A DNA stretch of 63,895 nucleotides, filler included, from Mitosporidium daphniae (Eukaryota), in assembly GCF_000760515.2 (NCBI RefSeq). It is 4 parts of 4 records of this genome, joined end to end, with 100 filler letters (N's around TTAATTAATTAA, not from the genome) between each part and the next. Parts side by side here need not be neighbours in the genome. Positions count along the whole stretch, not along the records: positions 16,964 to 33,771 come from NW_013546728.1; 3 more parts are not named here. One strand, given 5' to 3'. The position numbers and the translations under genes are program-made. Positions 16,864 through 60,637 of this stretch are shown piece after piece. The notes under the pieces are model-generated. The model searched no databases and had not been told where the DNA came from. It worked only from the letters and a program-made list of their open reading frames with translations. Each line of letters starts with the position of its first letter. Position 1 is the stretch's first letter.

Positions 16864-16963
16864 NNNNNNNNNNNNNNNNNNNNNNNNNNNNNNNNNNNNN
16901 NNNNNNNTTAATTAATTAANNNNNNNNNNNNNNNNNNNNNNNNNNNNNNNNNNNNNNNNNNNN
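16864..16963. other. Assembly gap with artificial TTAATTAATTAA six-frame-stop linker
   Basis: 100-nt N run with a central TTAATTAATTAA, same design as the other two gaps. Confidence 0.97.
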
Positions 16964-26831: not shown

Positions 26832-28139
26832 ATGGAGGAGATCGCCGCCGTCGCTAGTAGGCGCCCGCTCGCCACAGATGCCTCCGGATTCCCCAATCGC
26901 AGGTATAAATCTGAAGGGATTTACAAGTCGGATGAGGATCAACTAGACGAGCAGGTTTCGAGTGACGAGCAATCAGAAGAAAAGGAAAATGGAAATCGCG
27001 AGTATGGACAATATGATGGAGAATGGGGCACGTCGTCTTCACCTCCTTCGTCTTCTTCACCATCTTCCGCTTCCTCTACGATCTCTGGACAATCTGCAAT
27101 TAGGATTATCAAGTTCAAAATCCCTGGTCACGAGGAAAGCGATATACCAACCTATGGCGATGTCGATGTAAATGTCGATATTATTTCTGAGGTATCTTCT
27201 GAGCCCGATGGCATGGGCGCCGCTTCTTCCATCAAAAGGCCTAAACGGAAAGCCCCGCCGCCTCCACTTTTGACGGCACGAAAGGCACAGCATTTGAGTG
27301 CCTCTTCGAAACCATCTATCATGAAGGGTCGTCAAATTACGGCTAAGGTGACTTCTCCTGCTTCTACCATTAAGCCGTCAATGGGGACCAAGGTAGCTTC
27401 TATGATCCCCTCAACCATCAAGGCAGTTTCCACAGCATCCAGGACGACTACACAATCGAATTCAAAAACATCCACACCTGCCTCAAAGCCATCTGCAGCC
27501 GGGTCAAAAGGTGCCCCGCGTATCCAGGATTTGCCCGGTTATATTTCAGACATGCGAGCATTCGTGCAGGAGATGCGATCAATTCGCCTGCGGCCTTGGC
27601 TTAGAGCCCAGGCTGATCTCCATGGAATTGGATCTGATCCTACGGCAGAAATTTCGATCGGAACAGTGCCTGTATCTTCGGCATCGATTTCCGTCCCTGT
27701 ATGGATACGATGCGACGGCGGCACATCATCTGCTCGTAGGCGACAAAATCGCCGTCAAAGTACAATTGTGGCTCCGCAAATCAATGGTACGACAGCCGCT
27801 GAGGGTGATGCGGTGATTAAGCTTCTCTCATCGTTATTAAAGCGGATTCCGGCCGCTGCAGATGAAGGGTACCTCTGCGAGGTGCCTCGCTGCGCAAAGG
27901 TATTTCATGAAAAGGAAAAGTATCGAAGGCACCTACATAACCACGTCCGAACCATCAAGCACCAACAGGCACGGAATTCTGCCCCAGCATCATCCCATGC
28001 CTTTTCTGCTGAACATGAGGAGGAGGACGATGATGATGAGGACAACATTCCTCTGATTTCCCCGCCGTCAGTCGACAGCCGTACGGCATGGGCTGTCCGG
28101 CTATATCCATTGCAAGTCGAAGCGACTCGTCACAGCTAA
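26832..28139 (+). CDS. Largely disordered nuclear protein with a single C-terminal C2H2 zinc finger
   Basis: 435-aa ORF; YLCEVPRCAKVFHEKEKYRRHLHNH; acidic, Ser-rich and basic tracts. Confidence 0.7.
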   Translation: MEEIAAVASRRPLATDASGFPNRRYKSEGIYKSDEDQLDEQVSSDEQSEEKENGNREYGQYDGEWGTSSSPPSSSSPSSASSTISGQSAIRIIKFKIPGHEESDIPTYGDVDVNVDIISEVSSEPDGMGAASSIKRPKRKAPPPPLLTARKAQHLSASSKPSIMKGRQITAKVTSPASTIKPSMGTKVASMIPSTIKAVSTASRTTTQSNSKTSTPASKPSAAGSKGAPRIQDLPGYISDMRAFVQEMRSIRLRPWLRAQADLHGIGSDPTAEISIGTVPVSSASISVPVWIRCDGGTSSARRRQNRRQSTIVAPQINGTTAAEGDAVIKLLSSLLKRIPAAADEGYLCEVPRCAKVFHEKEKYRRHLHNHVRTIKHQQARNSAPASSHAFSAEHEEEDDDDEDNIPLISPPSVDSRTAWAVRLYPLQVEATRHS

Positions 28140-28228: not shown

Positions 28229-30631
28229 ATGTCTGCGGCCAGCCTAACTGTCATGCCGCTCGGAGCGGGGAATGAGGTGGGACGCTCTGCCATCTTGCTC
28301 TCGTTCCGGGGCAAAAATGTGCTGCTGGACTGCGGCATTCATCCCGCCCATTCAGGCATAGCATCGTTGCCCTTTTTTGATGCCATCGACCCCACTTCCA
28401 TCGACCTCATCCTGATTACACAGTAGCCTTTGATGATGGTAATTCTAGTTTCCACTTGGACCATATTGCGTCGTTGCCGTACTTTATGCAACGCACATCT
28501 TTCCGTGGCAAGGTCTACATGACACACCCGACAAAGGCAATCTACAAATGGCTGTTGCTGGACTTGATACGTCTAGCAGCAACTCCTGCAGAGTTGCTTT
28601 TTGACGAGCGTGATCTACAAGCATCTTACGAGCGTATTATCGCCGTTGACTATCACCAGGAGATTGATGTTTGCGGGGACGGCTCCATCCGCTTTACACC
28701 ATACCATGCGGGCCACGTGCTGGGCGCAGCTATGTTCGTAATCGAAATTACAGGTATCACAACTTCCTAATTACCGATAGGTAGGAAAAATGGTTTTATT
28801 TCTTAGGTGAGACAACACATTTTAGTTTACACATCCAGGGCTACGAATTCTGTACACAGGTGACTACTCGCGGGAGCAAGATCGGCATTTGCGGGCCGCT
28901 GAGCGGCCACCGGGTCCCGCACCGGACGTCATGATTTGCGAGGCAACTTATGGTGTGCAAGCGCACGAGCCACAGGCAGAACGCGAGCGGCGCTTTACCA
29001 GCCGGGTACATGAGATCGTGCAGCGTGGCGGTCGCTGTCTCTTACCAGTCTTTGCACTAGGCAAGGCGCATGAGCTGCTACTGATTTTGGACGAGTACTG
29101 GGAAAAACACCCAGAACTTCGCTCAGTTCCCATCTACTATGCCTCTTCACTCACCAAGAAATGCCTGACAATATACTCCACTTATCTTCACATGATGGGC
29201 ACAGGCTCAGACGGTGCATCTGCATCAATCACCTCTTCAAATATATTTCGCCACGTGACAAGCCTACGAGGAGCTGCTGCAGGACAGGCTGCCTCACTTC
29301 CAGGACCGTGCGTGGTGATGGCCTCTCCAGGAATGTTGCAAAGCGGGCTTTCGCGCGATTTATTAGAGGCATGGTGCGGCGACGCCCGAAACGGGCTTAT
29401 CTTGACAGGGTATTCTGNGGAGGGCACGCTCGCAAAATCTCTGCTTCAAGGTGAACCAACCGAGATTTCCTCCCTTTCCACTAAAAGGGCGTTGCCCTTC
29501 CGAATGGCTGTAGAGAGTATCTCATTCAGCGCGCACGTAGATTTCATCCAAAACGCACACTTTATTGAGGAGCTGTCTCCAAGGCATCTAGTGCTTGTGC
29601 ATGGCGAATATAATGAAATGATGCGGCTTAGAAATGCCTTACAGCACAAGTATGATGCCGAAGCTGAGCACAAAAGTGGCGACATAGCGGCTTCCGCCGC
29701 TACTACGGTGCACACACCGAGAAACTGTGAGGCATTAGAAATTGCCTTTGGTGAGCGGCGCGTAGCTCGCGTTGCAGGCTCCCTTGCGGCGGCCCTGCAT
29801 GCCGCTGGCGTTGCAGATGTTGCCAGCAACGGGGAGGATATTGCAAATGCAACGCCTACATCCCCTAAACCAATGTCTCTTCCGTCCGTCGATGCCGTGG
29901 CCTTGCTGGATCGCGGATGGGAATTGACGATTGCAGCACCGGAGGATCTTGCGGCGCATAGCTCTGGAATGCTGCGACAGGGCTCTGCTAGTGGCGCGGT
30001 AAGAGTCACATCTTCAGCACCTTGGGCGTTAGTTCACGAGCAGGTACTCGTTAACTTTTCCTTTTTGCAGGTAGTTCAGCTGGTGGGTGCCGCCAATGTC
30101 CGGTCTTCTACGGTCGATGGGATGCTTTCTTTGCTTCAGGGCGAAATTACTCTTGTCGCAGAGGACGGTGGGCTTTCGCTTCTCGTGAGCTGGCGCTCTT
30201 CTTCACCACTTGTTGAAATGATGGCCGATGCTCTTGTTGCAATGCTCACAGCTGTGGAGGGCACTCCAGCGTCAATTTCTACTTGTTGCAGCGCCACTAA
30301 AAAGGATCACATTCACGGCTCCGAAAAGGGCCATACTGACCATGATCATGGCCCAGATGCAGGTTGCTACCGCACTTCTGATGCCATTGGAGAGCTACTC
30401 GCAAACTATTATGAAGAAGTGCAGCGAGTCTCTGATGGCTGGGAAATCATTGTCGCAGAGAAGCAGGAGAAGGCGCCGTACCACCTGCGAATCACATCTG
30501 GCACTCAGTCCCCCATAGTGGTAGGCTTTATCTTCCAATCAGCATAGGAAATCGACGGACCCGACTCTCGCACTGTGTCGCAAATTCGGCGCATCGTCGC
30601 ATTACATCTGCTTGCCGTACCAAATCCTTGA
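28229..30631 (+). CDS. YSH1: CPSF73/Ysh1 pre-mRNA 3' endonuclease (MBL/beta-CASP)
   Basis: PLGAGNEVGRS, LLDCGIHP, FHLDH, AGHVLGAAMF, LYTGDYSRE, PVFALG, MASPGMLQSG, SFSAHVD, LVHGE. Confidence 0.96.
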
Positions 30632-31588: not shown

Positions 31589-32333
31589 ATGTCAGAGGAC
31601 GACCCGGCTGCGCCCGTGGTTTTTCAGTGTGGCGCGTGTAGGCGCGTGTTGGGCGACACACTCTCTTTTGTAGCTTCTGACGAGTCTGCAGGAATAGTTA
31701 CTCTTGCAAGTAAACCCATCTTTTCACGCTAGGACGGTCACCCCATGTTGCCATCGGATCCGAAATCTTGACGCAATTTGACACTGCAGCTTTTGACTAC
31801 AGAAGGTAGGCAGGACCCAAATTTGATTTTAGGTAAAATACGGCCACATTCAGTTTTAGGTAACGGTGAGATTTCCACATCGATTATAGGTAATTCTAAA
31901 ACTCCCTTATTGCCAGGTACTAAATATCGGTTTCTATCTTGCAGCACCTACTCGCTATTGAACTGCAGTTGCGGGGCAGCTTTAGGGCGGCTGTACCATT
32001 CCACGCCTAGAAGTTTTGACCATCTTCGGGATTGCTTTTCACTGTCCGTTAGTGCCCTTTCTGCGTACTTTAAAACCCCTTCGTAATAATAGATACCAAC
32101 TAGGATCTGGGCCGGATTCCCCATCAGCCGATTTTGACCCGTTCTTTACTGTGCCTTCTGCGCTCTTTTTATTGAGCGAGCTACGGAAGGTTGGCGATTT
32201 ATATCTTTCCTAGGTGCAAAAACATATTGTCGAGATGGAGATGCGCTTTGCGGCAACCGATGGGCCCGCTCCTCTGCGGCCGGCCACCAAGCGGGCGCCA
32301 AAAGCTGAACATAACCTTTTCAAACACACATAG
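31589..32333 (+). CDS. MIS18: Mis18 (Yippee-like zinc domain) centromere-licensing protein
   Basis: Spliced product PVVFQCGACRRVLGDT..DYRSTYSLLNCSCGAALGRLYHSTPRSFDHLRDCFSL..YQLGS plus a C-terminal helix. Introns at 31710-31732, 31806-31944 (compound) and two more downstream. Confidence 0.85.
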
Positions 32334-33707: not shown

Positions 33708-33771
33708 TGCGACCTGTGTGGATTGAACACACGGCCTTAAGATCTTCAGTCTCACGCTCTCCCAGCTGAGC
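33708..33771 (-). tRNA. tRNA-Phe(GAA), 5' end truncated by gap
   Basis: GCTCAGCTGGGAGAGC D-arm, TGAGA-CTGAAGA-TCTTA anticodon arm, GTTCAATC T-loop, followed by T6 terminator. Confidence 0.93.
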
Positions 33772-33871
33772 NNNNNNNNNNNNNNNNNNNNNNNNNNNNN
33801 NNNNNNNNNNNNNNNTTAATTAATTAANNNNNNNNNNNNNNNNNNNNNNNNNNNNNNNNNNNNNNNNNNNN
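33772..33871. other. Assembly gap with artificial linker
   Basis: N run with TTAATTAATTAA. Confidence 0.97.
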
Positions 33872-34223
33872 CTCAGCGTCAGAACTACCGCACATGTCTT
33901 TTTCGTCAGACTCGCTTGTTGATAAATATCTGGCTGAGTATTCTTCCGAAAGAGGCGATTCTTTCCCATATAAAGATGGTGAAGTTGAGGATATCTTTGG
34001 CTCACCCACATCTCATTCTCTTAATGACATTGCCGGTGATTTTGACGCTGAGGACTGGGGCTCACAGGTGAGAAGTCATGCCTTTTAATATTAGTACACT
34101 CCGATTGAACCTAGCATGTATCCGAGTTTTCCAGGAAAATTTTCACCGCGGCTCCAGCCCCAGCCAGAGGGGCAGAACGAACATTTTTATGACATAGACA
34201 TTGACAACTCAAAGGATGACTAG
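33872..34223 (+). CDS. Acidic hypothetical protein, 3' fragment (one intron)
   Basis: Open frame from the gap, intron gtgaga..attag near 34068-34094, ends ..DIDNSKDD*. Confidence 0.45.
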
Positions 34224-34298: not shown

Positions 34299-37200
34299 AT
34301 GGCATCCTCATTTTTAATTAAACGATGTTTAAGCAAGGGTACGACGTTTAGATCGCTACTTCCCGATAAAAATTCAATAAATAAACTGGTGGGTTCATGA
34401 TCATCTAATTTCAGGCGATAGAGGAGAAAATTCTCAAGCTTTGGGATAAAGCGACGGAAGAAGAGCCTGCCCCCAAGGCTCCAGATAAAGTCTTTTTATT
34501 GCCGCCACCAAACATCACGGGAAGCCTGCATATTGGGCATGCACTAACTGCATTTATTCAAGTATCTTGAAGCTTTTCCTTTAGGATGCAATTACTCGAG
34601 CATGGAAAATGAACGGGAAAACGGTCCTCTGGATTCCTGGCCTTGATCATGCCGGAATATCAACCCAAGTTATCCTGGAGAAAAGGCTATTTTACGAACT
34701 TAATGTAAGACCAGCGTGGTGATTTTTTTGTAGAAAAAACGCTGGCAAGTTCCCCGAGCCGAATGGGATTCGTTTGCTAAAAGGTGGGTAGAATCAACTG
34801 CCCATTACATCACGACCCAGTTGAAAAGACTGGGCGTATCGCTTGATTGGAAAATGAAATATTATACGCTTGATACGTTCAGATCTGAATTTGTTTCCGA
34901 GAGCTTTATAAAACTATACAATCACGGTCTCATATATCGCTCGTCAAAGCTGGTTAATTGGTGCCCGGAGCTCAGATCGACAATTTCTGACATTGAGGTA
35001 CTTATTTGGAAGCTGATTGCTTAAATAATAGATCGATACCATTCAGGTTCAACCTTTTGGTGTTATTTCTCTGCCTGATAATCGACAGATAAAGGCCGGC
35101 ATAATGTATAAGATCAAATTTCCCTTTTATGAATCTTGCCATGAAGGAGTTATCATTGGGACAAGTCGTCCAGAGACTTTATTTGGCGATATTGCAGTGG
35201 CAATTGGATCTGGTTATCATATAGGAGAGGCGGGCTCTCTTCAAAGGCCAAAATCTATTTTTCATCCAATTTTACGAAAAGAAATTCCTTTGATTCTAGA
35301 TGATGAAATGATCACCCCAGGTATGGGAACAGGGGCTGTGAAGGTATTTTTGAACCCCCCATTATAGATCACACCAGGACATGATAAGGCCGACTATGCG
35401 TTTGCACAAAAACACTTTGGAGTCGAATCTTTACCCCTGTTCATTGACATCTTTGATGACTCTGGCATTATAAAGAGCGGCATAGTAAATGGGACTGCGT
35501 TTTGTCATTTTTCTGGCCTTGATAGATGGCAACTCAGAGAAGCGGTACTTTCATATTTGAGAAGCGAAGATCTTTTAGTTGGGGAAGACGGAATTATACA
35601 AAATATCCCAATTTGCAGAAAGACTGGTGATGTGATCGAGCCTCGGCTTCTGCCTCAATGGTAAAACAAGTATTATATTTTCAGGTTTCTTAAGACAAAG
35701 CCACTTGCAGCTGTTGTTTTGGATGCAATCAAGGGGGAAAAGAACACGTTTAAGATTTTCCCTTCGTCATCTTTTGCGATTCTTACCAACTGGCTAAACA
35801 ACATTGAGGATTGGTGCATCTCTCGCCAACTGTGGTGGGGACACAAAATTCCTCTGTTCTACCCCACTGATGGGGGAGTCCCTCCAATTGCTGCTAAAAG
35901 TCTTGAAGAGGCAAAAAAGATTCATCCAGGAGAACTAATAGAGGAGTCCGATGTTTTGGATACTTGGTTTTCTTCTTGTCTTCTTCCTCTGAGCGCTTCA
36001 AGTGGCTATTATCCTATCAGTCTTCTTGAGACAGGAGCAGATATACTATTTTTTTGGGTTGCTCGAATGATGCTCCTTTGTACCTTTTTGAGTGGGAAGC
36101 TTCCTTTTAATGCAGTTTTGCTACATGGCATGGTGCGTTTTTTGTAGCCTTTATTTAGGTGAGAGACTCTTTTGGCAAAAAAATGTCCAAAACTCTTGGA
36201 AATACCGTCGATCCGATGACCATAATCAATGGAGACTCAGATCGAATCGATAGCTATTCCATAAGACCCATCTCTTCATCCAATCCAACGGGAAGCAATT
36301 CGACAGATATTGATCCGATTTCCTGGGGATCGGATTCTCTTAGAATGGCATTGTTGAGCTGCAATTTTATGGTTCGATGTTATCGCTTTTGATTTGGGTA
36401 GTCTACTGATATTGTGTTCTCCAAAAAATACCTCAATGCTGCTAGAGCGCTTGAAGTTAAAGTTGTCAATTCACTCAAATGGATACTAACTCAAAAAGAG
36501 AAGCAGCTAACCTTGGACATTTCTGCTGATAAGATGAACTTGGTAGAAGAATTTGTTTATTTTCGCCTTGGGGCGGCAATGGAAGTCAGCAATCATGCTC
36601 TGGCCAATTCATTTAACCTGGAAAAGGGACTTTCAGCGCTAACGGGGTTTTTTATGGACACATTTTGTGGGGCTTTTATAGAAATTGCAAAAGGTCGCCT
36701 TTACGATGGAAATTTGTTCCATATTTTGAACATCTTCGCTATTTTTCTCAAGTCCTTTCATCCATATTGCCCGCTATTAACTGAGGCATGTATTCGTTTC
36801 TTATTCTAGTTTTGTTGGCAAGTTTTGAAAGAGTGTTATGGAAGTACTCCAATGTTGGAGATTTTCAAAGCCGATGCATTATCAAAGACGACTATTCTCG
36901 AAACTGAGATACAGCTTCTCAAAAAACCCGCACCAATGGTGGATGAGGAATTTTCCAGCCTGCTAAATCTTGTTTCTGCAATTAGGATCACAATCGGAAA
37001 TTTGAGTCCCCTAAAAGCATCCAAAATATGGATTCTTTCGACCGAAAGTCTTGACCTTGGAATCATTAGGTCGATGCTTAATATGGGTGACATTTTTGTG
37101 CAAAGCCATATTGATAATGAGAAATTATTAGCAAGGTGTTTTTCGCAATGTGTCCTTTTATCGAAGAAATGTTCCCCATATGCAACGATTGAATTTTACA

Positions 37201-38434: not shown

Positions 38435-41400
38435 TTAATGAGCTTTTGATTTACTGGTGTTTTTGGATGATGAAGAGCGGGAAGATGATTTGCAGGATGA
38501 AGAGGAAAGTAGGTCAATGACCCACAAAAATCTATTCCTAAATGAAGAGGGCTGCTGCTTGAAGAATTCCTTCAAAGCAGACCCCAATTCGGGCTCCATT
38601 GCAATTGCAGCTGCCAATTGCTCCTTCGGAAGCTGGATGACAATCTGCAACGAAACAGGAATCATTTTCTAAGAAATTATACGTGCCATAGCTACTTTGC
38701 AAAGCGTGACAAAGTTTTCCCACAATTCAGGCTTGCCCTGCCAAACTTTTCTTGACACAAGACGTACCATGAACGATACGGCAAAATTGGCCACCTGCCT
38801 TTGGTTAAAGCTAGCGCCTGTTGATAAAGAAAGGCCAAGCTATGGCGATATTAAAGGAACAAAACCATACCATATCTAAAACCGTAGAGGGGGGAAGTGT
38901 AATTGAGTCGATCAATGACTGAAGCGAAGACAAGACGACTTCTTGTTTGAAAGACTCTTTGAGCTCAAAGAGACACGTTCTTATTGCTAAAATGTAAAGG
39001 CAAATGGCACACGTACCCGATACAATAAGCTTGGTGTCGATGGTTGAGTAAAGGTTGTGCAATGTAGTTAGCAATTCCATCGGTGTGACGGATCCTACCG
39101 AAAGTGGGTTGAGGATTGCAAGAAGGATGTTCTTGAGCGTTGGGATGCTCTGAATTCCCTCCAGTTCGCTCTCTGCATCCGTAAATTCCTTTCTCCGCAA
39201 TCTTTCGACGTCCACAATCAAAAGAGGTAGAAATTCCAAAACCAGGTCCTAACAAACGATTACAAGTGAAACGATGGCGAGACACATAGAAAGACAATCA
39301 AAAGGGCATAGTACCTTTTCTAAGCCCCCAAGCAACGGCACCATGAACATAGTTCCAAGTTGGTGAGTCTTGATTACCTCCATGATTGCCATGATCAATC
39401 GCTTATCAAGTCTGTGTGATATGTTCTGTTTATCTGTGTCAAAAGAAAGGCTATTAACAAGGTAGCCCAAAAAGGGTTCTCCCCCCCTACGATAAACCCT
39501 AAGCACATTATTAACCAACTCAATTCTGTTTTGTGAATTGTAAATGTTTAAAATTGTCTGTCTCAAGGGAGACATTTTCCTTCGATGAGTTGAAGCATCC
39601 CCCTCAACTTGGTCAACTTGAATTCCCGCATCTTCCCCCTGCCCCTCCCCATCCCTCTCTGCCTTTCCCTCCACACCTCCTTCCTCAATCACATCTTCAG
39701 CGAAATAAACACGCCAATTGTCGTAGAAATAGCACAGAAACGACGGATATCGCATACAGAGAGCAAAAAAGAGATCAGACTTGGCCTCAATGGCGCTCCT
39801 GGCACATTGGCGGGCAGAAGAATCTTGTTCTTTTTTGACCTCCTCGCCAGGGGCGTGTCCATAATACTTTTCCATTATCGTGGAGTCCAGAGATAGCTCC
39901 CGTAGCTGGTTTAAAGCAAAGTCTTTCAAGAGTAACAGGAAGAATTCATTTTTATCCTCCAGTGAAGGCATCAGCTTTTCCAAAATAATGTGAATAGAAA
40001 AGTGTCGATACCCTTTATGTCTGTGCGTCAGGAATTGAAGCAAAACAGGCACCAAAAAGGACCTGACCTTTGGTCTCAGTTTACATAGCTTACAAGTTAC
40101 TCCGAGAACATAGCACAGGCGCCGCAATGACAATTCTTCAGCTCCAAGTTGAAAGGTTCCGTCAAATTGCGGGGAAGTCTCGTGGTGGCTGGTTATGGCC
40201 GATGAAAGAACCGAGTACAGATTGCTTTGAAGGATATTGGCCGTCGCGATTGGAGAAAGGGCCAAAAAATATGAAAGGTTTAGCAGATTTGCATCTCTAG
40301 ATTCAAGCAAAAGGGCAACCGTGTCCTTTATCACTTGACTCTCCAGTGTTGAGTTTTCAAACTGATCTTCTAAATTTGTGTAGCTATTGTCGGCGACAAG
40401 GGAGCATTTCACCTCATCACAGAACGATGAAATTATAAAATTAAAGATCTTTTCAAGACGCTTGTCACATCGAGTGAACCTTTTATAGTACCATTCGTGA
40501 TGAAGCCAGAGCAAGGCAAGGGTTACGCGTTCCGAATTCAGGGAGCCAGGAAAAGACAAAAATTTCAAAAGCGACTCTGAAATGTATCCGAAAACCTTGC
40601 CAAAAGAAGCATCCTCGCCCGCGTCCTTCTTTGCAATGGAGTCAACAACCGTTGAGAGGCGCGTTACTATTTGCATCCAAAATAAATATTCCTTCGGACA
40701 TTCAGAAAGACATCTCAATTGAGATTGCGTGCATTGGACAATATTATCCGAAAGAGAAGACAAAATAGAGACCTTGATCTGCTCTGGAGACTGCTGCTCC
40801 AATTGGTCATTCACTTGCGCAGAAAGATCCTCAGACTGCAGGTTTTCGGAAACAGGCTTTGAAGGCTTCGTGGCTTCAGAGAGCTGAAAAAGTTTTTCTC
40901 TCAAAGAATCCTCTGTGATGATATTTGAGAATATCTACAAAAACAAAAAACAAAAAATGGCCAAACCTCAAACGAATCAACCAGATCCTGCTGGGTGCAC
41001 GAAAGGAATGTGTTCATCAGCATTTCGATGACAATAAAAACGGGAAGCTTCGAAATATCAATCGGTAGAAGCCGCATTTTGTTTGTATTTATTCTGACAC
41101 ACTTGGTTAAAAGAAACTCTGTTTTTTGGATTATCGTTGAATCGAGAAAGGATGAAGAGGTGGCGGGTTCCAAGCCAATTGCGCCTGCAGCTTCCGTAGA
41201 CGTGTCTCGTTGCTTGGCTTTTTTGGAGATTTGGAGCGCATTTTCTGAGCTGTTGAGCTTTACAGATTTCAATTTGGTAACCAGCTCGTAAATCGAATGT
41301 TGTATGATGGAAGAATATGAATTGTTGAACCTAAAGGAAATCCAACGAAGAATACCTTGCCAGCAAGGATAAAGCGCATTTGAGAGAAAGATTTATCGAT

Positions 41401-56902: not shown

Positions 56903-58563
56903 ATGCAATCCTTCTACGATGAATTCCAGGCATTGTTAATCGAGTTTTCGAATGCACTAAGATGTTCAATATGGTTGGTTTTCTCTTTAAATTTTAGTAA
57001 CCAGCTATATACTCGCCCAACTACGGTGACCGAATGTGGCCATAGATTTTGTGGCGATTGCATCAAGGAGAATTTAGGGGTCAATTGCTTGTGCCCTTAT
57101 TGTGGCCAACCTGCTCGCGGTAAAAACCTACGAATTTCTCCCCTTCATTCGAATCTAGTTAATTGGACTAGAGCCATGTTAACTAGCTTGGAAAAATTTG
57201 CATCTTCCAACGACATTTCTTTTCCAAGGCCTGCGCCTGAAACTCCCGTACTGAGCTACTCTCAAGCGGCTAGTATTGATGGCGTAAATGATTCTTTTGA
57301 TTCAAACACAAGCTTTGAGACGGAAAAGGCTCCGTTTGACTCTGATTCAAAGTCGCCAATTAAAAGCCGCAGTTTTAAAAGGGTCAGTTTTCCAAATACC
57401 TCCAACATAAAATCCCATCGAGGCGGTTCTGTGATTTCTCCAAAAGCATCTGACAAGATAAAAGCTGCCAACTTATCAGCGGGAAGTAAATCGGAAACTT
57501 TTTCGTTGATGGATCTTATCTCTAGTGGGACTGTTCCCATTGGGTCGGTAGCATATTGCTTTGATTGCACGGCAAAGATAACGTCAAGTGGAAGTCTCAT
57601 TGACGAAATTGATTTACAAGAGTACTTTGATCCCTCAGATTGGGCAACATACGTTGTTCGGTGTGTAGAAAACCGACGCTTGTCGCGTCAAGATGGCCTA
57701 AAGGCCATTAAAGTGGGCGGAAAGACATTGGAGGAGTTGTATTCTTCGGTTTTTGTACAGCAAAGCACAACTAGAAACGATCCTGTTCTCAAACAAGATA
57801 CGAATGTTTTTAGCTTGGCAGAACAAAGTCCACAAAGGATTGTCAAGCTTTCCACGTCAAGCCTATCTCGTGATCAGTCAAAATTTTTGGAATTACATTC
57901 AAGAAATCACCTTCAATATTCGCTCAATTTATCACCAGATCCTGATATCTCGGGAAGTACATATCTCGTGGTTGATACGGACTCGAATCAACGATGCCGT
58001 CGGACTCTAAAATATCTATTTGCTTGCATGCTAAAGATTCCCGTGGTATCCTTTCAATGTATGATTGCCTCAATTAATCACTAGGGATCTTGACTTCAGT
58101 TAATGAAAGGCGGTGGAAAGATATAACCAATTATCGTGTCACACAAGACTTTCAAGGCCGTACGTTCAATGTAAATTGCCGTGACATGCTTTTTTCTGGT
58201 TTAACGGTCGCCTTTGGTGATAATACCTCAAAGCCAGAATGCAGTCTCATTTCTAATGAGATAACGACAAAGTTTGTAAAGTACGGGGGTGGAAAGATTT
58301 TCAGCGAAGAACCGCGAAAGTTCATCTCGCTGGGTCGTATCGATCCATCTTTTTTGTTTGATGCAATCGTTCCGGATGCGTTACTATTGGTGATTGATAC
58401 CAGCCCAAAGTTTACTTTCTCAAGCATTAAAGTTCCAAAAGTCGATTTTCAAGCGTCTAAATTCAAGGGATACACGATTAGATCTTCGGCCTGGTTTCTT
58501 GACTGCATCTCTCAAAATACATTGGCACACGTTGACCCTTTCAGCTTAACGAAAAATTCATAA
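56903..58563 (+). CDS. BRCA1/BARD1-like protein: RING, RAMA-like domain, tandem BRCT
   Basis: Removing intron 56974-56997 restores CSICNQL..CGHRFCGDC..CPYC. BRCT1 YLVVD..CRRTLKYL..VVSFQW (intron 58059-58084); BRCT2 LFSGL..GGGKI..AWFLDCIS. Confidence 0.8.
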
Positions 58564-60565: not shown

Positions 60566-60637
60566 TTCCGTATCGGGGAATCGAACCCCGGCCGTCACGG
60601 TGAGAGCGTGAAATCCTAGCCACTAGACCAATACGGA
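60566..60637 (-). tRNA. tRNA-Glu(CTC)
   Basis: Complete cloverleaf TCCGTAT..TCACG-CTCTCAC-CGTGA..GGTTCGATTCC..ATACGGA-A, followed by T7. Confidence 0.96.

Follow-up and report, generated by a model that had tools for sequence, protein, structure and literature searches.

A compound intron of three abutting minimal units in the CPSF73/YSH1 gene of Mitosporidium daphniae, probably removed by zero-exon recursive splicing

Recursive splicing is usually explained as the handling of very long introns. In Drosophila and vertebrates, ratchet-point recursive splicing is described as typical of introns longer than 10 kb (PMC13149111). Among fungi, zero-nucleotide-exon recursive splicing of units of 210 and 165 nt is reported for Cryptococcus neoformans BOT1, where it was shown by junctions and branches (10.1101/224170), and a zero-length exon, with its conservation shown, is described in the 336-nt intron of the snoRNA host gene SPNCRNA.445 of S. 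pombe (10.1101/226894). "Abutting U2 introns" also appear as a named class beside stwintrons (PMC6616335). None of three papers on tiny introns (PMC13644364, PMC10245619, PMC12862383) mentions recursive splicing, as judged by term look-ups. The process is on record for animals, S. pombe and Cryptococcus, and the literature searched contained no chain of minimal-size units; the search returned no paper on minimal-intron chains in Mitosporidium or Rozella, which does not establish their absence from print.

Mitosporidium daphniae is an early-branching microsporidian that parasitises water fleas. The window, i.e. the whole stretch of DNA analysed here, comprises 63,895 nt in four joined parts of its genome (RefSeq assembly GCF_000760515.2). 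The N runs at ~16864-16963 and ~33772-33872, with their TTAATTAATTAA linker, are artificial contig joins, and the sequences flanking them may not be adjacent. Within a zinc-finger gene of low complexity, the window differs from sequencing runs at 27035 and 28029: one 18-nt repeat copy found in 4/4 runs is missing from it, and it carries 3 nt that 3/4 lack. The gene considered here passes as CPSF73/YSH1 by its metallo-beta-lactamase and beta-CASP domains and by orthology to YSH1, and its features, including those shared with the NCBI-annotated M. daphniae YSH1 protein (P0122), are as follows.

28229..28422 (+): exon 1, to which P0122 maps; weak Lactamase_B match
28423..28448 (+): intron 1, ordinary, 26 nt, in the gene model and P0122; P0125, a fragment from a relative, stops here too
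28449..28753 (+): exon 2, ending in AG; Lactamase_B_6 match (E 4e-12); P0122
28754-28838 (+): compound intron, 85 nt, three abutting GT..AG units with zero exon between them
28754-28780 (+): unit 1, 27 nt, GTATCA..GATAG; CTAAT branch-like motif at -14; in-frame TAA
28781-28806 (+): unit 2, 26 nt, GTAGGA..CTTAG; T-rich 3' end
28807-28838 (+): unit 3, 32 nt, GTGAGA..TCCAG; internal AG at +19; weak
28839..30547 (+): downstream coding region as annotated; Beta-Casp match (E 5e-25); P0122
30044-30070 and 30521-30547 (+): two extra 27-nt intron-like segments, removed by the gene model and retained in the NCBI protein

At the first of these 27-nt segments the relative's protein P0002 diverges and stops, which suggests that 30044-30070 is a real intron and that the CPSF73 C-terminus is longer, reaching 30631. 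Similarity is lost three codons downstream of the chain junction (28846-28847, + strand) in 20 of 42 scorable homolog fragments, a pattern which suggests that a phase-0 intron is widespread at this point, 8 nt away from the chain position, and absent in M. daphniae.

The division into three units had been proposed in an earlier note on this DNA, and on re-reading the sequence its coordinates, lengths and ends are all exact. The 85-nt excision which the note considered necessary for the conserved junction gives VIEITG-LRIL, with a spacing that agrees with homologs and with the NCBI annotation. Among 120 homologs, 111 had both flanking motifs (the nine without a motif match were left out), and in every one of the 111 exactly 10 residues separate the motifs, the spacing obtained after excision of 85 nt; P0122, mapped to the window, has 28754-28838 removed as one intron. 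Judged by this homology and by the annotation, no relay-site base would be left in the mature mRNA. The three units are inserted in phase 1, within a glycine codon, and translation of every state gave a premature stop in 7/7 unit-retention states. As the note had anticipated, retaining unit 1 or unit 2 introduces a stop (at codon 172 and codon 175, respectively), and retaining unit 3 shifts the frame, with a premature stop at codon 209. At 28780/1 and 28806/7 a 3' splice site directly abuts a 5' splice site in the form YAG|GTR, an arrangement found at four more junctions in MIS18.

The background against which the units can be read is a catalogue of 72 predicted single introns in the window, which are 23-35 nt long (mean 27) and feature GTA donors in 57 cases and TAG acceptors in 64. 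The catalogue was curated from gene-finder predictions: in recognisable genes, a first run with a flat length prior gave introns clustering at 23-35 nt, and a second run took these short introns as its prior, so that the length range and the AG rule described below are partly circular. The first run was rejected as a gene model, as it bridged intergenic DNA and mis-parsed the CPSF73 junction, and a 178-nt PIGN intron of the second run was rejected for one of 28 nt. An outside check was provided by the NCBI annotation, where eight of nine proteins (all except P0145) could be mapped to the window, implying 33 introns, of which 27 measure 36 nt or less and the other six 41, 63, 65, 83, 85 and 139 nt. 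Three of the longer ones, at 34339-34421 (83 nt), 35632-35694 (63 nt) and 58059-58099 (41 nt), all on the + strand, lie in ValRS and a RING/BRCT gene. Each of them encloses a frame-keeping intron of 24-26 nt, which the gene model uses instead, and the three are likely annotation errors.

Within the 72 introns an AG at least 23 nt from the donor is skipped at none of 232 positions, compared with about nine expected from the rate of 0.04 at positions 4-15, and an AG at position 22 is skipped in two cases. The CPSF73 units, at 26-32 nt, fall within the range of the predicted introns, and a walk from 28754 to the first AG at a distance of at least 23 nt reaches three AGs, the first two with a GT directly after them and the third closing the walk at 28838; 8/8 units of the CPSF73 and MIS18 chains obey this rule. 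As regards sequence signals, the scores of units 1 and 2 are in line with those of catalogue introns, unlike that of unit 3. Unit 2 is the best of the three at 6.7 bits (99.6th percentile of background, 76th of catalogue introns), followed by unit 1 at 1.8 bits (96th and 19th percentile), while unit 3, at -3.3 bits, lies at the 75th percentile of background and under all 72 catalogue introns; branch motifs are weak throughout the genome, being present in 36% of the 72. The three-unit chain is the top parse (4.5 bits) of 20 open-frame short-intron parses of the junction. It was also picked unprompted by the second gene-finder run, in which chains were cost-free and which called no further chain among the genes it printed, MIS18 being below the print threshold. 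The interruption of CPSF73 is a real, non-random compound intron.

The second case claimed within 3 kb is borne out, as a chain in MIS18 starts 2,968 nt downstream of the CPSF73 chain.

31806..31944 (+): MIS18 chain of five units, all GTA..YAG, annotated as one 139-nt intron (P0121)
31806-31832 (27 nt), 31833-31859 (27 nt), 31860-31889 (30 nt), 31890-31916 (27 nt) and 31917-31944 (28 nt) (+): the five MIS18 units

The first-AG walk crosses this intron in five steps of 27, 27, 30, 27 and 28 nt. The 139 nt are non-coding, since Pfam Yippee-Mis18 positions 1-30 and 55-96 leave space just for the middle exon of ~25 residues; the homolog search gave the M. daphniae protein itself as its sole match. 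Translation ends at codon 66 or 67 in each of the 31 retention states. Four of the units have lengths that are multiples of 3 and start with GTAG or GTAA, which gives an immediate stop after the AG of the exon. Elsewhere in the window, a possible two-unit chain (31 + 32 nt) was noted at 3337-3275 (- strand), in a gene without assigned identity and with an open frame running through it.

Longer introns without a chain bear on the question of what limits intron length, the best characterised being that of symplekin.

39249..39314 (-): probable symplekin intron, 66 nt, with no internal AG and no chain

In a relative, the fragments P0243 and P0244 are interrupted at both boundaries of this intron: the match ends at the same donor, 20 unrelated residues lead to a stop, and similarity resumes at the same exon. 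This implies that the relative would carry an intron of ~63 nt at the site, and its 20-residue tail shows no glycine or glutamine-valine pattern marking a mid-point AG|GT. The representative search for symplekin yielded three Mitosporidium-like fragments only, and neither Pfam nor PDB comparisons placed the junction. The annotated last intron of PEX1 (23550-23486, - strand, 65 nt) contains CTAAT and CTGAC motifs and no AG past position 5; it is known from the annotation alone and lies near a poorly conserved C-terminus. Given the probable 66-nt and the annotated 65-nt intron, a strict length limit on introns is unlikely, and both cases fit a first-AG rule by which long introns are either chained or free of AG.

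Relatives of the CPSF73 locus were recovered as protein fragments and metagenome loci. P0154, which is 93% identical to exon 2, diverges directly after the junction glycine and reaches a stop five codons on, and P0002 (83%) starts three unrelated residues ahead of the same glycine; from these divergences at the outer junctions, both outer splice sites appear to be shared. P0154 ends in proline followed by a stop, reminiscent of the CCTAAT of unit 1, which is a weak hint. The 39 metagenome loci have 45-62% identity, none being close, and none carries an insertion at the chain junction (six of them missed the upstream motif and were judged by eye). A 30-nt insertion is present in three of the 39 a few codons downstream of the junction. 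No related locus was found in genome_contigs or viral_contigs.

The chains were also compared with several null models. A partition of the CPSF73 85 nt into three units of 23-35 nt arose in 10 of 200,000 mononucleotide shuffles with strict ends and in 136 with loose criteria, while among 100,000 simulated introns the figures were 0 and 11; the five-unit partition of MIS18 occurred in no null test. Two chains of at least three units are observed window-wide, and any such chain was present in one of 300 dinucleotide shuffles, with a unit floor of -4 bits chosen after the score of unit 3 had been seen; under a stricter floor (10th-percentile score) the CPSF73 chain is lost and MIS18 is split into two doublets. 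Two-unit chains (4, against a shuffle mean of 1.0 and maximum of 5) are not significantly enriched, and loose GT..AG chains are no more numerous than in shuffles (165 vs 181 for two units, 10 vs 9.4 for three). The loose scan also counted in the CPSF73 chain an exonic pseudo-unit at 28717-28753, which codes for the conserved HVLGAAMF motif and was rejected on that ground. The unit scores exceed those of background GT..first-AG segments (p 1e-5) and as a group lie somewhat under those of catalogue introns (p 0.09).

Units within a chain resemble each other as by chance, the best of 13 pairs reaching 55%, the 96th percentile of catalogue pairs, and neither chain features the unit similarity of a recent tandem intron duplication or an introner family. 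Despite this, the internal junctions are YAG|GTR in 6/6 cases across both chains, and such intact junctions between dissimilar interiors suggest selection. In contigs from 5/5 runs (two studies; one may be where the window came from) the locus is covered throughout and the 85 nt are unchanged, which makes an assembly artefact unlikely; these contigs show no joints, which carries no information on splicing. As regards an intron-hosted snoRNA or other structured RNA, the Rfam search found no match in the units, its matches in the window being two tRNAs elsewhere, and folding of the chain did not exceed shuffles (z -0.56 and 0.15).

60566-60637 and 33716-33771 (-): two tRNA matches (Rfam)

A small hairpin is predicted over the junction of units 1 and 2.

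On this evidence we consider it probable that the 85 nt are removed in three ordinary steps, by zero-exon recursive splicing governed by first-AG choice. The spliceosome would pair a donor with the first AG past a minimal distance, and by such pairing unit 1 would be cut as a 27-nt intron; the terminal AG of the exon would then meet the next GT, rebuilding an AG|GT donor context, and the cycle would run twice more. The upstream exon ends in AG in both CPSF73 and MIS18, and every chain donor would thus see AG|GT before and after each step. The order of removal would be immaterial, the mRNA being the same, and intermediates would yield no enzyme, since every incomplete state has a premature stop. 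The probable AG-free intron of 66 nt points to 3' splice-site choice, not a hard length cap, as the driver. The chains may have originated from an old whole-intron tandem duplication or from repeated insertion at one AG|GT site. From the reading in the earlier note, the compound anatomy and the second case are retained, with stepwise removal as the best interpretation, while its "general architecture" is too strong a term for two chains against 72 single short introns and a symplekin intron of 66 nt without internal AG.

The main rival explanation, which we judge unlikely, is that the 85-nt intron is mostly removed in a single step, the internal AG|GT sites being left over from whole-intron duplications or rarely used. 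It accords with the one intron of the annotation and with the weakness of unit 3, and the probable unchained introns of 65-66 nt speak for longer introns being removable at once; in addition, derived microsporidia are reported to splice a 76-nt intron better than those of ~25 nt (PMC6349667), and human introns below 1,000 nt with recursive sites are described as favouring conventional lariats (PMC10156609). However, one-step excision would have to skip five internal AGs, whereas in catalogue introns no AG from 23 nt onwards is passed over and the unchained long introns have no AG past position 5, and relics should decay like the dissimilar unit interiors, yet all six junctions are intact. The poison-exon alternative raised in the earlier note, with unit 2 as a regulated 26-nt cassette tuning CPSF73 via nonsense-mediated decay, can draw on the valid acceptor and donor that flank this unit and on the stop caused by its inclusion. 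It is not favoured, and seems distinctly improbable, because unit 2 is the most intron-like of the three by score, with a GTA start and T-rich TAG end which are not required of a cassette exon, and because the five-unit MIS18 chain is not covered by the idea.

A conventional micro-exon is harder still to credit. Introns at 28754-28784 (31 nt) and 28793-28825 (33 nt) with an 8-nt exon between them would form the sole parse with GT donors, in-range lengths, a real exon and both flanking motifs kept, but this parse adds seven residues where none of the 111 scorable homologs has an insertion, scores -1.6 bits against 4.5 for the chain, and disagrees with the NCBI annotation. Moreover, P0002 has unrelated residues at the extra positions despite an 83% identical exon, and the edges of P0002 and P0154 indicate that the bases which the micro-exon makes coding are not conserved. 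Chance, an assembly artefact or an intron-hosted structured RNA is largely refuted and barely tenable: the finding was picked after looking, and AT-rich introns have weak signals, but the partition nulls, the window shuffles and the unchanged DNA in 5/5 runs all argue against chance and artefact, as do the Rfam and folding results against a structured RNA.

Three to five minimal introns chained together in the compact genome of a parasite would represent the opposite regime to that of very long introns, with relays forced by 3' splice-site choice, and they offer a simple, countable test both of how splice sites pair and of in-place intron multiplication. Annotated "long" introns in the lineage may hide several introns, which would affect intron counts and estimates of intron gain near the origin of microsporidia. 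More tentatively, and with some doubt on our part, the first AG past ~23 nt may be a near-fixed rule in parasites from Rozella to Mitosporidium; introns would then grow in whole-intron quanta, longer introns containing AG would be ratchets of minimal introns, and multi-step recursive splicing of 26-32-nt units would be obligatory lineage-wide at the root of the microsporidia, would operate even on the essential CPSF73 and MIS18, and would provide a natural test of the minimal spliceosome footprint and of the zero-length exon.

Like BOT1 as described, CPSF73 is an essential fungal protein-coding gene whose annotated intron would consist of introns joined by a zero-nucleotide exon; unlike the two RNA-demonstrated units of 210 and 165 nt in BOT1, the chains here have three and five predicted units of 26-32 nt, the standard intron size of the organism. 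With SPNCRNA.445 they share the arrangement, within a short fungal intron, of a 3' splice site with a 5' splice site directly after it, whereas the host genes are coding, the units have no Rfam match, and they are more numerous and far smaller than in that 336-nt intron of a snoRNA host. Fungal stwintrons (PMC6616335) are likewise complex intervening sequences that need consecutive U2 splicing reactions; in these, however, the inner intron lies within a splice signal of the outer intron and so imposes an order, while the present units lie complete side by side with no forced order, each with its GT and AG uninterrupted in the primary sequence, and are thus not stwintrons. The CPSF73 intron resembles the long conserved introns of derived microsporidia (PMC6349667) in being about three times the ~25-nt norm, and differs in that each of the latter is one intron, conserved in sequence and with a hyperextended branch point, as opposed to a chain with weak branch signals. 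Finally, as at the ratchet points of animals, AG|GT relay sites occur several in series and the mRNA would be left without inserted bases, and a whole chain spans 85-139 nt in place of introns longer than 10 kb.
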